From Candidatus Dormiibacterota bacterium (lineage in GTDB: Bacteria; Chloroflexota; Dormibacteria; Aeolococcales; Aeolococcaceae): a stretch of DNA of 64,000 nt. The translations under genes and the position numbers were made by a program. Numbering within the stretch: position 1 is the first letter of the stretch; each line of letters begins with the position of its first letter. The stretch is taken from assembly GCA_963709585.1 (NCBI GenBank), contig CAVPXI010000014.1, forward strand, positions 320,001 to 384,000, read 5' to 3'. Shown in pieces: positions 23,535 through 31,477 of the stretch. The notes under the pieces were generated by a model. The model saw only the letters and a program-made list of their open reading frames with translations. It did not search any database and had not been told where the DNA came from.

Positions 23535-24518
23535 GTGACCAGCGAGCCCTGGGGATCTCAGCCGTCCTCCACCGGCGCCGGCGCAAGTCCCTCGGCGGCG
23601 CTGCGCCACGTGCTTCTCTGGGCTTCGCGGCGCAGTCAGATCAAGCGGGCGGTGACATCGGCGCCGGTGACTCGGCAGGTGGTCCGTCGCTTCGTCGCCG
23701 GCGAGACCATCGAGGACGCCGTCCGCGTGACCCGGGACCTGACCGCCGGCGGGCTGCAGGTCTCGCTCGACCATCTCGGCGAGGACACCCGCGACGCCAC
23801 GACGGCACGTGCCGCGGTGGACGCATACCGCGCCCTCGCCGCCCGCCTGGCCGAGGACGGCCTTGCCACCGTCGCGGAGATGTCGGTGAAACTCTCCGCG
23901 GTGGGGCAGGCCCTCGACGAGTCCATGGCCCTCGACAACGCGCGTGTGATCTGCGACGCCGCCCGCGCCGCCGGCTCGTTGGTGACCATCGACATGGAGG
24001 ACCACACCACCACCGATTCGACGCTGCGTCTCGTCGCCTTGATTCGCCAGGACTTCCCGTCGACCGGGGCGGTGCTCCAGGCGTCGCTCCACCGGACCGA
24101 GGACGACTGCCGTGCCCTGGGGGTGCCGGGTTCGCGTGTTCGTCTGTGCAAGGGTGCATACCTGGAGCCGCCGTCCGTCGCCTGGCAACGCCCCGACGCC
24201 ATCCGTGCTGCGTACATCAACTGCCTGAGCACGCTGATCGCCGGCGGCGCGCTGCCGATGGCTGCCACGCACGACCCTAAGCTCGTCGAGGCGACCGGCC
24301 GCCTGGTCCGCGACATCGGCGGACCAGGATTCAAACACGAGTATCAGATGCTCTTCGGGATCCGCCCCGGTGAGCAGCACCGCCTCGTCGCGGCCGGTGA
24401 GACGGTGCGCGTCTACGTGCCGTTTGGCGTGCAGTGGTATGGATATCTCATGCGCCGCATGGCCGAGCGACCGGCCAACACCGGGCTCTTCCTGCGCGCG
24501 CTGATGAGCAGGCGCTGA
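23535..24518 (+). CDS. Proline dehydrogenase (monofunctional)
   Basis: RRFVAGE, IDMED, RLCKGAY, ATHD, YQMLFGIR, RRMAERPAN. Confidence 0.92.
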   Translation: MTSEPWGSQPSSTGAGASPSAALRHVLLWASRRSQIKRAVTSAPVTRQVVRRFVAGETIEDAVRVTRDLTAGGLQVSLDHLGEDTRDATTARAAVDAYRALAARLAEDGLATVAEMSVKLSAVGQALDESMALDNARVICDAARAAGSLVTIDMEDHTTTDSTLRLVALIRQDFPSTGAVLQASLHRTEDDCRALGVPGSRVRLCKGAYLEPPSVAWQRPDAIRAAYINCLSTLIAGGALPMAATHDPKLVEATGRLVRDIGGPGFKHEYQMLFGIRPGEQHRLVAAGETVRVYVPFGVQWYGYLMRRMAERPANTGLFLRALMSRR

Positions 24519-25462
24519 TGGCCGCGTCACTGCACGGCACCCGCGTCGTCGTCACCGGCGGCGCCGGCTTCATCGGCGTCCACAGCGTCGAGGCATTGCT
24601 CGAATCCGGAGCGGAGGTGCTGGTCGTCGACGACCTGCGTCACGCCTCGTACCGGCCGCTCCCCGGCGGCGCGGGTCTCGAGGTGGTGGATGTCGGCGAG
24701 GCCGCGTCGCGCGCCGCTATCGAGGGCTGGAAACCCACGGCGATCCTCCATCTCGCCGCGCAGGGCGGCGTCAACCGATCCTGGCGCGAGCCGGCGGCGG
24801 ACGCCCGAATCAACGTGCTCGGGACCGTGAGCGTGCTCGCGGCGGCGATCGCCGCCGGGTGCCGGCGGGTCGTCGTCGCGTCATCCGGCGGAGCCCTCTA
24901 TGGAGCCGCGCGCCGCCTGCCGACACCCGAGGACGAACCGGCACAGCCACGATCGCCGTACGGCACCGCAAAGCTCAGCATCGAGCACTACCTCGGCCAT
25001 TTCACGCGGGCCGGCGCCGTCGATGCGCTGGCGCTCCGCTACGGGAACGTCTACGGCCCGGGGCAGGACGGCACCGGCGAAGCGGGTGTCGTGGCGATCT
25101 CGAGCCACCGGTTGCTCGAGGGCCGGGCGCCGGTGATCCGGGGCGACGGCGCCCAGACCCGGGATTTCACCTACGTCGGGGATATCGTCGCCGCGAACGT
25201 TCTGGGGCTCACCTCGAACGTGACCGGCGCGCTCAACATCGGCACCGGCCGCGAGACCGCGGTCGGCGATCTGGTCCGCCGCCTCTGCGCGCTCGCCGGC
25301 TATGGCGGGGAGCCCGAGCGCGAGCTGCTTCCACCCGGCGAGGTGGCGCGCAGCGCCCTCGACAACTCGCTGGCCGCCGATCGCCTCGGATGGAGCCCGA
25401 GTGTCAGCCTCGACGATGGGCTGGCGCAGACGCTGGTGAGCTTCCGCGACCAGGTCCGGTGA
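24518..25462 (+). CDS. NAD-dependent sugar epimerase (GalE-like)
   Basis: TGGAGFIG, YGTAK, LRYGNVYGP, QTRDFTYV. Confidence 0.9.
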   Translation: MAASLHGTRVVVTGGAGFIGVHSVEALLESGAEVLVVDDLRHASYRPLPGGAGLEVVDVGEAASRAAIEGWKPTAILHLAAQGGVNRSWREPAADARINVLGTVSVLAAAIAAGCRRVVVASSGGALYGAARRLPTPEDEPAQPRSPYGTAKLSIEHYLGHFTRAGAVDALALRYGNVYGPGQDGTGEAGVVAISSHRLLEGRAPVIRGDGAQTRDFTYVGDIVAANVLGLTSNVTGALNIGTGRETAVGDLVRRLCALAGYGGEPERELLPPGEVARSALDNSLAADRLGWSPSVSLDDGLAQTLVSFRDQVR

Positions 25463-26689
25463 TCAGACCGCGGTGTGGGCGGCGGTGATCAGGCCGGACA
25501 CATCGAGCACCAAGGCGAGCGCCACCAGCGCGCCGATCACCGTGGCGCGTGTCGTCGAAAGCGGCCCGGTCCGCCGCCACGCGATCGTCCACGCGGTAAT
25601 CGGTGCCGCCGCGGCGACCGCGACGAGCAGGTAGCGCGCCTGCGGCTGAAGATCGAACGTGGCCGAGTTCAACACCGACTGAATCGCCGCAACCAGCAGC
25701 GCGCCGAGGAGGAGGATCGCGACCCTCCGCCGCACCGGGTCCCATCTCGCCCAGGAACGCGCCACCGCGACGCAGGCGGCGATGGTGATCACGGCGACGC
25801 CGGCGATCGCGACCGTGGCGGGCAGCGGCCGAACTCCGAGGATCGAGATCGCCACGAGATGCGCGCCGTCTCCGTACATGCCCACCAGGCTCACCGCCGT
25901 GGCGGCGAGATAGCCGCGCACCTGCGCGAATGAGTCGAAGACCTGGCGCTGCGCGGTGATCGGGTGCAACGGTGGGAGCGGACTCCCGAACTCCACGGCG
26001 TTGCGCACGAACCACCACCCTGCGAGCACGATCGTCGGCACGAGCAGCGCGGCCGCGTGGAGAGCGCGAAGCTGGCGGCCACATCGCACCACGACCAGTA
26101 CCAGGAGCAACAGCGCCAGGATCCAGACCGTCTCCTTGGCGAGCACGGCGAGGGCGACCGCAAGCCCGGCCCCGAGAGCGAGACGCGGCGTCACCACCTC
26201 GCTCTGCACCACGACGACCCCGGCGAGCACGAGCAGGGCGCCGGCGAGCCAGGCGAGGTTGTCGTCGTTGATCGCTCCTGCCAGGTACTGCGCCTCGGGG
26301 AGGAGCGCGACCAGGGCCGCGGCTCCCACGGCCAGCGCCGGCCGGAGTGGGAAGAGGCGCCGCGACACCGCGTAGACGGTGAGAATCGTGAGCACCCCGA
26401 GGACCACGGAAACCAGCCGGATGAGGTGCGGATCGTCCCCGCTCAGCCTGGCGACGATCGCCCCCAGGAGGTAGTAGAGCGGCGGTTGCTGACGTTCGGG
26501 CTCGCCAGCCGGCGGCAGCCGGAGGTGATCTGCGATGCCGTTGATGTAGTGGAGGTGGGACAGCTCGTCGGGCGACGCGCCGACCGGCGTGATCCGGGTG
26601 TAGGCGACCGCGAATCCTGCGAAGACCGCGATCACGGTCCCGAGGAGGATGCGATCAACGCGCAGCCGCTCGCCGCGAGCGACACTCAC
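25463..26689 (-). CDS. GT-C fold membrane glycosyltransferase (PMT/ArnT/DUF2142-like)
   Basis: PDELSHLHY, QPPLYY, INDDNL, QARYL; multiple TMs. Confidence 0.78.
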   Translation of the reverse strand: MSVARGERLRVDRILLGTVIAVFAGFAVAYTRITPVGASPDELSHLHYINGIADHLRLPPAGEPERQQPPLYYLLGAIVARLSGDDPHLIRLVSVVLGVLTILTVYAVSRRLFPLRPALAVGAAALVALLPEAQYLAGAINDDNLAWLAGALLVLAGVVVVQSEVVTPRLALGAGLAVALAVLAKETVWILALLLLVLVVVRCGRQLRALHAAALLVPTIVLAGWWFVRNAVEFGSPLPPLHPITAQRQVFDSFAQVRGYLAATAVSLVGMYGDGAHLVAISILGVRPLPATVAIAGVAVITIAACVAVARSWARWDPVRRRVAILLLGALLVAAIQSVLNSATFDLQPQARYLLVAVAAAAPITAWTIAWRRTGPLSTTRATVIGALVALALVLDVSGLITAAHTAV

Positions 26690-30198: not shown

Positions 30199-30412
30199 GC
30201 AAGAAGCTCCTGAGTGTTGGGACCCTGCGACCTTCGGAGAGAAGACCTTACAAACGGGTTATGAGCTCGGATTATGCCTACACGGTCCGTCCACTGGCCA
30301 CACCGAACCATCAATGCCCGCCTGAAAACCAGCGAACGCTGAGAAATCAGCGTGCCTACCCCTGTGCAAACCATCGACCCCGGAGCGGACAAAAGAGCGA
30401 CAATCAGCTTTC

Positions 30413-31477
30413 GTGTCGATCTCGGGTTCTGCTCGCCGTGGGCGTCTGCTCCGGGCGGCGATCACCAGCGTCGTCACCGTCCTGGTGCTTCTGCTCGTCT
30501 GGCGGCTGTTCGGCGGGAACCACCTCCGCTGGCAGGGCATCAACCCGTCGGTTGGATCGATCGCGCTGGCCGCCTTCGGCGCCTCATGTTTCCTCGTGGG
30601 CCGCGCGTGGCGGTTCGCGGCGCTGCTCCCGAGGCGCCGGGGGAGTTCGCGAGAGCTGCTCGGCGCCACGGCGGCATCGTGGGGAGCCGGCCTGTTGCTG
30701 CCCGGACCATCTGCCGACATCACGTTCGTCGCCCTGGCGAGGACACGATTCGGCGTCGGCGTCGCGCGAGGGTCGGGAAGCGCGATCGTGGCTCGAATCC
30801 TCGACGTCGTCAGTCTCTCCCTGATCGCGGTTGTCGCGGCCATCTTCACGGGAGCCCATGTCCACCCCGCGGTCATCCTGGCGGCCGCACTGGCGTTCGG
30901 CGTCGGTCTGGGCGTGCTGCTCTCGCTGATCATTCCCGGACCTCGGTCCCTGGTGACAAGGCTTGCGGCGCGGATTCCGAGGCTCGCCGGCGTCGCCGCC
31001 CGTGCTGAGGCCGAGCTCGATGTGCTCAACAGCCGCGCACGGTGGGCGAACCTGGTCGGCAGCACGATCTTCTGCCGGGTCGCCACCGTCATCCAGTACG
31101 CGGCGCTGATGAGCATGGTCGGGCTGCATCTGGGGTTCTGGCAGACGTGGTTCGTCCTGTCGATCCGGACGCTGCTCCTGACCATCCCCATCCAGGGCAT
31201 CGCGGGCATCGGCACCGGTCAGGCGTGGTGGGCTGGAGCGCTGCTCCTCGAAGGCGTCAACGGTTCGCTCGCCGTCGCGGCCGGGTTGACGCTGCAGGCG
31301 ATCGACCTTGCGGTCTCCCTGCCGGTGGCGGGCATCGGCAGCACGCTGCTCTTCCGCCGCAACCGGGACCGCTCTGCCGAGGACCCCGGCGACGACGACG
31401 TCAGCGATGAGAAGCCGGGGCGTGACGTGGTGGGGACGCCAACCCCGCCGTCACGCGAGCCCCTTCACGTCGCCTGA
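30413..31477 (+). CDS. Lysylphosphatidylglycerol synthase TM / flippase-like membrane protein
   Basis: RAWRF..LL, ARILD, IPIQGIAGIGT; multi-TM. Confidence 0.75.
   Translation: MSISGSARRGRLLRAAITSVVTVLVLLLVWRLFGGNHLRWQGINPSVGSIALAAFGASCFLVGRAWRFAALLPRRRGSSRELLGATAASWGAGLLLPGPSADITFVALARTRFGVGVARGSGSAIVARILDVVSLSLIAVVAAIFTGAHVHPAVILAAALAFGVGLGVLLSLIIPGPRSLVTRLAARIPRLAGVAARAEAELDVLNSRARWANLVGSTIFCRVATVIQYAALMSMVGLHLGFWQTWFVLSIRTLLLTIPIQGIAGIGTGQAWWAGALLLEGVNGSLAVAAGLTLQAIDLAVSLPVAGIGSTLLFRRNRDRSAEDPGDDDVSDEKPGRDVVGTPTPPSREPLHVA

Follow-up and report, generated by a model that had tools for sequence, protein, structure and literature searches.

In three-component glycosylation systems, i.e., GtrA/GtrB/GtrC, ArnC/ArnE-F/ArnT, CsbB/GtcA/YfhO and GacI/J/K/L, a glycosyltransferase of the GT2 type makes a polyprenyl-phosphate-linked monosaccharide, a membrane protein translocates it and a glycosyltransferase of the GT-C type transfers the sugar outside the cell. 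Mycobacterial arabinogalactan is decorated with galactosamine by PpgS (Rv3631) and Rv3779. In Sulfolobus, a soluble transferase adds sulfoquinovose to a dolichol-diphosphate-linked glycan on the cytoplasmic side. Sulfoquinovose is reportedly part of the N-glycan of Sulfolobus acidocaldarius (Agl3/Agl16), and the N-glycan of Thermoplasma acidophilum is said to carry 6-C-sulfofucose, a finding attributed to Vinogradov in 2012 (cited in PMC12421959). To our knowledge, sulfoquinovose has been seen as a lipid head group and its only known use in glycans is archaeal; we know of no polyprenyl-phosphate-sulfosugar, of no GT-C step for a sulfosugar and of no bacterial example. The present work deals with a six-gene cluster containing sqdB, the gene of a UDP-sulfoquinovose synthase. 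The cluster is located in a stretch of 64,000 nucleotides (hereafter the window; G000:C14:320001-384000) of the 3.52-Mb genome (24 contigs, 88.8% complete) of an uncultured soil member of the class Dormibacteria (Candidatus Dormiibacterota), the nearest relatives of which are metagenome-assembled genomes (MAGs) of Candidatus Dormibacterota.

With a probability of about 60%, the cluster would encode a three-component-type, lipid-carrier glycosylation system for a 6-sulfo-6-deoxyhexose with a candidate extracytoplasmic acceptor. The proposed steps are the following: (i) SqdB would convert UDP-glucose and sulfite into UDP-sulfoquinovose; (ii) a GalE-type epimerase of the short-chain dehydrogenase/reductase (SDR) type would probably interconvert UDP-sulfoquinovose and UDP-sulfofucose; (iii) a short ArnC/DPMS-like GT2 would load the sulfosugar onto polyprenyl phosphate at the inner membrane face; (iv) a UPF0104/PplT-type protein would carry the lipid-linked sugar to the outer face; (v) an ArnT-like GT-C (GT-C#1) and a second one (GT-C#2) would pass the sugar to one or more extracytoplasmic acceptors, the candidates being a wall glycopolymer, a lipoglycan or a protein. 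From gene content, homologies, linkage, co-occurrence and fusion, all of them observed, we infer every reaction that follows UDP-sulfoquinovose. The original prediction made on this DNA was a lipid-carrier transfer of sulfoquinovose replacing the sulfolipid synthase. Its design is supported by the linkage, the exclusivity with SqdX, the joint gain and loss, the GT2-GT-C#1 fusion and the matches of the models with lipid-carrier enzymes; the sugar, for its part, may be sulfofucose rather than sulfoquinovose.

Gene order and conservation of the cluster

Six genes were found between 24518 and 31477 of the window by reading the open reading frames (ORFs) and by Pfam and NCBIfam scans. The features are:

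24518-25462, plus strand: SDR epimerase, a GalE-type extended-SDR 4-epimerase by homology (314 aa; Pfam Epimerase 5e-51)
26689-25463, minus strand: GT-C#2, all-membrane PMT_2-type glycosyltransferase (408 aa; GTG start; Pfam PMT_2 2.7e-12)
28222-26686, minus strand: GT-C#1, ArnT-like GT-C with a C-terminal soluble domain (ATG start; frameshifted in this assembly; Pfam PMT_2)
28966-28223, minus strand: GT2, polyprenyl-phosphate glycosyltransferase type (247 aa; GTG start; Pfam GT2 9e-21)
30198-28972, minus strand: sqdB, UDP-sulfoquinovose synthase of SQD1 type (408 aa; by homology to SQD1)
30199-30412, no strand: intergenic spacer (214 nt) separating the divergent sqdB and flippase-like genes
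30413-31477, plus strand: membrane protein of the LPG_synthase_TM/UPF0104/PplT family (354 aa; Pfam PF03706 5.7e-14)

All six genes are at the places first described, with sqdB, GT2 and the two GT-C genes abutting or overlapping on the minus strand and flanked by a divergent flippase-like gene and a convergent epimerase. GT2 starts 5 nt past the sqdB stop, the ATG of GT-C#1 comes immediately after the GT2 stop, and the GTG of GT-C#2 overlaps the TGA of GT-C#1. The SDR gene is convergent with GT-C#2 and their stops abut.

The neighbourhood of sqdB was surveyed in 108 SqdB loci. A contig search, with at least 589 loci, contributed its best 80, a sample of 201 genomes from the GTDB phylum contributed 27 (the unpublished genome G173 is not among these 27), and the own locus completes the set. 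Neighbours were detected within 6 kb. SqdX only is found at 42 loci, the GT2 module at 24, both at none and neither at 42; the 42 SqdX loci have none of the module genes within that distance. Of the 24 module loci, 22 have the SDR, 19 a PF03706 gene and 18 a GT-C; as extracted for the survey (L001), the own locus ends short of its SDR. The epimerase, initially taken for a mere flank, is thus a conserved core member. According to Pfam, the constant core near sqdB consists of the PF03706 gene, the SDR, SqdB and a GT2 of approximately 250 aa. The GT-C family differs by locus (PMT_2 in L011, L012 and L016; DUF2079 in L017 and L018; DUF2142 and GT87 in L024), and gene order and orientation differ as well. 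The survey shows that the association of sqdB with GT2 and GT-C genes is conserved beyond the source genome.

Co-occurrence was analyzed in 81 Dormibacteria genomes with a profile of the 24 module GT2s, a score of 330 bits or more defining the module type. The scores are two-peaked: 34 genomes range from 330.6 to 403.9 bits and the next best reaches 245.8. Of the 37 genomes with SqdB, 34 have module-type GT2; of the 44 without SqdB, none has it (31/34 vs. 0/43 without the unpublished G173, G224, G242 and G258). As for the three exceptions, the GT2 of G204 is truncated and located 2 kb from sqdB, and in G252 (79% complete) and G243 (82% complete) sqdB is on a short contig or cut. GT2 and sqdB are 15-2061 nt apart in 27 of the 34 genomes. 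In the other seven (G202, G248, G242, G212, G257, G164 and G239) they are on different contigs; GT2 and SqdB are thus kept together even when unlinked. The presence of SqdB is patchy, i.e., 14/18 in f1, 5/5 in f52, 12/23 in f2, 5/23 in f3, 0/11 in f4 and 6/15 in genus g8, where all 4 genomes with module-type GT2 are among the 6 SqdB-positive ones. These counts support that module GT2 and SqdB were gained and lost together. In the survey of the 108 loci, GT2 module and SqdX are mutually exclusive beside sqdB. Chance clustering is ruled out by the conservation and the co-occurrence counts.

The search for longer relatives of GT2 gave 32 clusters. GT2 (52-67% identity) is fused to a full-length GT-C#1 orthologue (48-57%) in 23 full-length clusters of 724-809 aa. 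The single polypeptide occurs in many metagenomic clusters (P0004, P0006-P0026, P0028 and P0031); the partial cluster P0003 has the same fusion and P0030 is a broken GT2/GT-C#1 piece. The same fusion is found in L009 (about 5060-7385), with sqdB adjoining. The apparent SqdB-GT2 fusions (P0001, P0002, P0005, P0027, P0029 and P0032) have lost the last 5-50 residues of SqdB and were discounted, because they look like frameshift read-through in MAGs.

The absence of SqdX, SqdC and SqdD from the window, as first stated, holds. For the genome, four SqdX proteins encoded at sqdB loci of cyanobacteria and Caldilineaceae served as queries. Across phyla, true SqdX proteins reach 329-345 bits with one another; the best GT4 matches in the source genome reach 72-93 bits (24-32% identity), i.e., no SqdX orthologue was found in this 88.8% complete genome. 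No match to GT8 (PF01501, the SqdD type) was found in it either. At this completeness, the absence of SqdX and GT8 from the genome is not proven. Among five other module-bearing Dormibacteria genomes, four have no SqdX match above 84.5 bits.

The SqdB tree is a quick IQ-TREE analysis of 100 sequences, 8 rows having been dropped (stops, short length, own copy). The 23 module rows are in one Dormibacteria clade (SH-aLRT 100), together with the non-module loci L010, L015 and L089. The sister clade is made of 14 Acidimicrobiales rows, with neither SqdX nor GT2 module nearby. The two loci examined there have, after sqdB, an ORF of approximately 400-420 aa without Pfam family and, upstream, RmuC (L033:8326-9594 and L035:8407-9606). 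L024, labelled Candidatus Micrarchaeaceae archaeon, has an SqdB and an SDR that nest in the Dormibacteria clade, and the SqdB of L049, labelled Acetobacteraceae, nests inside Nostoc; faulty binning or labelling is a more probable cause of both placements than transfer.

Properties of the encoded proteins

SqdB aligns with Arabidopsis SQD1 (1qrr) over residues 5-385 (514 bits, 2e-153), a similarity about equal to that of the cyanobacterial SqdB proteins. The motifs GTMGEYG and YHLSK are identical to those of SQD1 in the alignment (positions counted on the 1qrr chain); we take them to contain the catalytic residues T145, Y182 and K186 and the adjacent H183. The NCBIfam model NF041015 is matched with 4.1e-138 and 460.5 bits. 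sqdB is the sole copy in the source genome, where a near full-length GalU-like gene (279 bits) can supply UDP-glucose. This strong homology indicates that SqdB would produce UDP-sulfoquinovose from UDP-glucose and sulfite.

GT2 is closest to polyprenyl-phosphate transferases. ArnC is its best NCBIfam match (8.2e-22), the PpgS model being matched with 2.8e-9. Its top solved relatives by sequence are ArnC (2.3e-21), DPMS (9.8e-11) and GtrB (1.4e-9), all before GpgS. The predicted model has a pLDDT of 87.2; with Foldseek, all listed ranks through 19 are ArnC, DPMS or GtrB (TM-score 0.62-0.78), and structures of the soluble GpgS are the next fold matches. GT2 has the GT-A fold with its DXD motif; this motif, D-G-D (D98, D100), and D45-D46 are invariant in 24 orthologues. 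Hydropathy shows no hydrophobic segment, i.e., no transmembrane (TM) segment, across the 247 aa. A predicted complex of GT2 with the PplT-like protein (custom alignments A3 and A4) scores 0.00 and has no bearing either way.

The gene at 30413-31477 has a PF03706 score of 52.7 bits for a cut-off of 33.4 bits (59-115 bits for the orthologues), and its product has about 8 hydrophobic segments by hydropathy. It is proposed, from its family, as the translocator of the lipid-linked sugar. Pfam scans gave no flippase of the GtrA, SMR or Wzx type in the cluster, the genome not having been searched for GtrA. In the part of Makarova et al. (2015, PMC5898192) that concerns archaeal glycosylation, UPF0104 proteins are predicted flippases encoded near PMT/STT3-like and AglD-like GT2 genes, and AglD is itself a GT2 fused to UPF0104. 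Fusions of PplT to glycosyltransferase domains are also among those listed in bioRxiv 10.1101/2022.03.11.483950, in the part on these proteins.

Both GT-C genes differ from their first description. GT-C#1 is frameshifted in the window. In its 423-aa reading, the sequence beyond about residue 277 is Arg-rich nonsense. The orthologues of L003 and L004 have 511 aa and match the window in two frames, 28207-27392 and 27390-26689; the DNA alignment with L003, L004 and L007 shows one extra base near 27392 in the window. This base, 27392, is missing from every covering contig of three public runs (depth 13.1/13.1 in X1, 2.77/2.77 in X2 and 7.35/7.35 in X5) and from part of the depth in a fourth one (9.27/15.9 in X20); the frameshift is thus likely an assembly error or a private mutation. 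GT-C#2 was first read as an ORF of 494 aa, of which about 86 N-terminal residues are spurious, leaving 408 aa; it is 82% identical to the L003 orthologue. The PMT_2 scores are 47.6 bits for GT-C#2 and 34.2 bits for GT-C#1 and its L003 orthologue, the cut-off being 26.1. GT-C#2 was rejected as an Agl23 (NCBIfam, 24.5 bits for a cut-off of 126 bits).

Two other places in the window are of note. The reading of pgk is broken into two or more frames (positions 1-98 of the PGK profile in 54709-55041 and 98-247 in 54033-54773, minus strand), and part of LigA (adenylation, OB, Zn finger) shares one open frame (60502-63999, minus strand) with a complete UvrC. Taken with the frameshift of GT-C#1, these places suggest that the assembly contains indel errors.

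GT-C#1 has an acidic motif, E22-P-H-W-Y-T-D28-E29, in its first extracytoplasmic loop, without variation among 26 sequences; the role of this motif is known from work on PMT and ArnT. Folding was done on the intact L003 orthologue with a 26-row alignment. The model is of moderate confidence (pLDDT 73.5) and its best PDB match is ArnT (5f15, E 1.2e-6, TM-score 0.54), followed by AglB, STT3, AftB and AftD. GT-C#1 has two paralogues, convergent with each other and 34-42% identical to it over about 240-280 N-terminal aa, 40 kb upstream of the window, at G000:C14:276199-279447 (L117:8199-11447), beside a histidine phosphatase and ResB.

The best solved relative of the SDR is the UDP-glucose 4-epimerase of T. 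maritima (4zrm, 236 bits), followed by 7ys8 and 2p5u, all of them UDP-glucose 4-epimerases. The catalytic motifs (YxxxK and Ser) are present as SPYGTAK and ASSGG. With 130.6 bits, the SDR is under the 262.3-bit cut-off of the equivalog TIGR01179. A second GalE-like gene, 49% identical, is found on contig C7 of the source genome, and each of five other module genomes has one or two further GalE-like genes. In a tree of 28 SDRs, a branch with SH-aLRT 99 separates the 21 that are linked to SqdB/GT2 from the 7 paralogues without this link. The linked clade has the invariant residues H43, G84-G85, G186-T187, F218 and V277 (numbered from 24515); G84-G85 and G186-T187 are, we assume, in loops lining the hexose pocket of GalE structures. 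When sqdB is unlinked, the SDR stays with GT2 and GT-C (G164, G257 and G239) or about 7 kb from GT2 (G212), and in G164 and G212 sqdB stands in a bare locus.

Judging from linkage and clade separation, the SDR probably acts on UDP-sulfoquinovose and interconverts it with its C4 epimer, UDP-sulfofucose. Since the 4-epimerase is conserved and dedicated, and since the simplest chain runs from SqdB through the SDR to GT2, the transferred sugar may be sulfofucose (6-deoxy-6-sulfo-galactose) rather than sulfoquinovose. A mere supply of UDP-glucose by the SDR is disfavoured by the GalU-like gene and by the fact that, on separation, the SDR follows GT2 and not sqdB.

Alternative readings and genome context

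Several observations weigh against a lipid-carrier system for a sulfosugar. SqdB is under the 575-bit equivalog cut-off of NF041015, a cut-off that just 1 of the 14 control genomes passes. In G074, a probable SqdX (273 bits, on another contig) occurs alongside the GT2 module. Within 6 kb, a GT-C is found in just 18 and a PplT-type gene in 19 of the 24 module loci. GT2 does not have the C-terminal TM helices of ArnC, GtrB and DPMS; in relatives, the fusion with GT-C#1 supplies a membrane anchor. All module loci being in one SqdB clade, the link between GT2 and sqdB may be of single origin, and the counts among kin are not independent. In the part of PMC12713373 dealing with them, the experimental ties of UPF0104 proteins are with phospholipid and glycolipid systems (MprF, gpgSDF), not with polyprenyl-phosphate sugars. 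Finally, an SDR, a GT2 and a GT-C kept together without sqdB (G164, G212, G257 and G239) fit an ordinary 4-epimerised-hexose module as well.

This last point leads to a reading in which SDR, GT2, PplT and GT-C stand on their own as a system for an ordinary 4-epimerised sugar (such as galactose or N-acetylgalactosamine via polyprenyl-phosphate-Gal(NAc), like PpgS/Rv3779), SqdB being a frequent neighbour and feeding a different transferase. The closeness of the SDR to broad-specificity UDP-hexose 4-epimerases and the match of GT2 to the PpgS model are in its favour, as are the four genomes with sqdB on another contig. Such a system is quite unlikely, given that module-type GT2 is found in 0 of the 44 SqdB-negative and 34 of the 37 SqdB-positive genomes, including the 7 with unlinked genes, that the source genome, at its completeness, gave no SqdX or GT8 candidate for the different transferase, and that the second GalE-like paralogue exists for housekeeping. 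A soluble product is also conceivable: GT2, predicted without TM segment and with GpgS structures as next fold matches after ArnC, DPMS and GtrB, would work like glucosyl-3-phosphoglycerate synthase and make a sulfoquinovosyl solute (a sulfoquinovosyl-glycerate or -glycerol osmolyte). GpgS ranks under all polyprenyl-phosphate transferases, and the GT2-GT-C#1 fusions and the constant membrane-protein neighbours tie GT2 to the membrane, which makes this product highly improbable.

The sulfosugar could also be put by GT2 directly on a membrane lipid (diacylglycerol, phosphatidylglycerol or another one), the UPF0104/PplT protein flipping the resulting anionic glycolipid to the outer leaflet and the GT-Cs being accessory or acting on another substrate. 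GT-C enzymes use polyprenyl-linked donors; in the cluster family, the GT-Cs adjoin in 18 of 24 loci and are fused to GT2 in the 23 full-length clusters, and by both sequence and fold GT2 is nearest to polyprenyl-phosphate transferases, not to lipid glycosyltransferases. On the other side, with SqdX not found, another enzyme is needed for any sulfolipid, and UPF0104 proteins are predicted flippases of glycolipid systems: GpgF is encoded with a glycosyltransferase and a deacetylase making glucosaminyl-phosphatidylglycerol (GlcN-PG), and MprF flips Lys-PG (parts of PMC12713373 and of bioRxiv 10.1101/2022.03.11.483950 on these proteins). The flipping would be like that proposed for gpgSDF and hexSDF. 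It must be noted that GpgS of gpgSDF is described as a GT4, not a GT2, in the corresponding part of PMC12713373. A sulfoglycolipid is thus considered unlikely, and the lipid-carrier system for a sulfosugar is retained.

As for the acceptor, no match to LpxC or Omp85 was found in the source genome. The cell appears monoderm and lipid A is thus excluded. The source genome has a second cluster at C4:100001-116000 (L119), with a PMT-type protein O-mannosyltransferase-like gene, a 660-aa ORF, a GT2 sharing 35% identity with that of the module, a PIG-V-like GT-C, a GT4 and a fused NTP_transferase/phosphomannomutase (GDP-mannose pyrophosphorylase/phosphomannomutase). By its gene content, it would be the same lipid-carrier design for mannose.

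In the RNA library of the soil metatranscriptome run X20, contigs 90-95% alike cover all four minus-strand genes and one spans the sqdB/GT2 junction. These contigs come from relatives and are a weak hint of transcription, not a proof. The promoter scan gave one weak sigma-70-like site (30300-30271, minus strand; 1 site vs. 0.5 expected) and the terminator scan three terminator-like sites (vs. 1.8 expected); neither is significant.

The stop of a proline dehydrogenase gene (23082-24518) overlaps the ATG of the SDR by one base (window 24516-24520); the two genes may thus be co-transcribed in this lineage. The remainder of the window is made of unrelated housekeeping genes. An island of lower GC (0.597 vs. 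about 0.68) is found at about 2000-6000. It carries a fragment of an AAA_15-type ATPase (2876-3547) and two weakly matched proteins, one of DUF4435 (4071-5009; 7.4e-5, under the cut-off) and one of the HEPN RiboL-PSP type (5006-5707). Possibly this is a PARIS-like (ABC ATPase and DUF4435) defence island.

Significance and comparison with known systems

Three observations are new with respect to the original prediction: (i) the epimerase is a core member; (ii) GT2 and GT-C#1 are fused elsewhere; (iii) the GT-C#1 frameshift is found in this assembly only. In the literature searched, no bacterial lipid-carrier sulfosugar system was found described. A 2026 review (PMC13436972) describes, in the part concerned, no route for sulfoquinovose other than SqdB-SqdX. 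According to the part of a 2025 mBio paper (PMC12421959) that deals with sulfofucose, no biosynthetic pathway is known for this sugar and a soil bacterium grows on it. The SqdB-linked 4-epimerase is a directly testable candidate for this question of sulfofucose biosynthesis. It is only tentatively suggested that sulfofucose has in this cluster its first biosynthetic route, and that no bacterial route placing a C-sulfonated sugar on the cell surface by way of polyprenyl phosphate precedes it, i.e., from SqdB through the 4-epimerase to UDP-sulfofucose, polyprenyl-phosphate-sulfofucose and the GT-Cs.

If a bacterial lipid-carrier route is true, it would mean (i) a new class of anionic, phosphate-free surface decoration; (ii) an addition to the classes of substrates used by GT2 and GT-C enzymes; (iii) a non-phototroph source of soil sulfosugars. 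If the sugar is sulfofucose, the abundant soil Dormibacteria would be an unrecognised source of organosulfonates, feeding the soil degraders of sulfofucose and sulfoquinovose.

The cluster resembles the three-component systems in that its GT2 is nearest to ArnC, DPMS and GtrB and its GT-C#1 to ArnT. It differs from them by the SqdB donor pathway (i.e., a C-sulfonated sugar), a UPF0104/PplT protein in place of GtrA, SMR or Wzx, a GT2 without TM segment, two GT-Cs and a dedicated 4-epimerase. The archaeal AglD-type modules bring together the same three protein families; on the contrary, they use dolichol and a hexose for N-glycans and have no link with SqdB. The fusion partner of GT2 is also different: UPF0104 in AglD, a GT-C in the relatives of the cluster; in the cluster itself, GT2 stands alone.

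The mycobacterial PpgS/Rv3779 pair is similar in its sequence of steps, i.e., an epimerase-derived UDP-sugar, a short GT2, a polyprenyl-phosphate-sugar and a GT-C acting on a wall polymer in a monoderm-type cell. Its sugar is GalNAc/GalN, and it has neither SqdB nor a UPF0104 partner. In the part of PMC12713373 devoted to it, gpgSDF of P. aeruginosa consists of a GT4, a deacetylase and a UPF0104 predicted flippase, and makes GlcN-phosphatidylglycerol. Like the cluster, it is a glycosyltransferase operon with a UPF0104 predicted flippase, and it alters the surface charge; unlike the cluster, it has a GT4 and a deacetylase, a phospholipid glycoside as product and, in that part of PMC12713373, no GT-C.

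The SqdB-SqdX (SQD1-SQD2) pathway shares its first enzyme with the cluster, for which no SqdX orthologue was found. The archaeal Agl3/Agl16 and Thermoplasma glycans carry their sulfosugar on a surface glycoconjugate, not on a lipid, and a C4-epimeric sulfosugar is known in nature; in both respects they are like the product proposed for the cluster.

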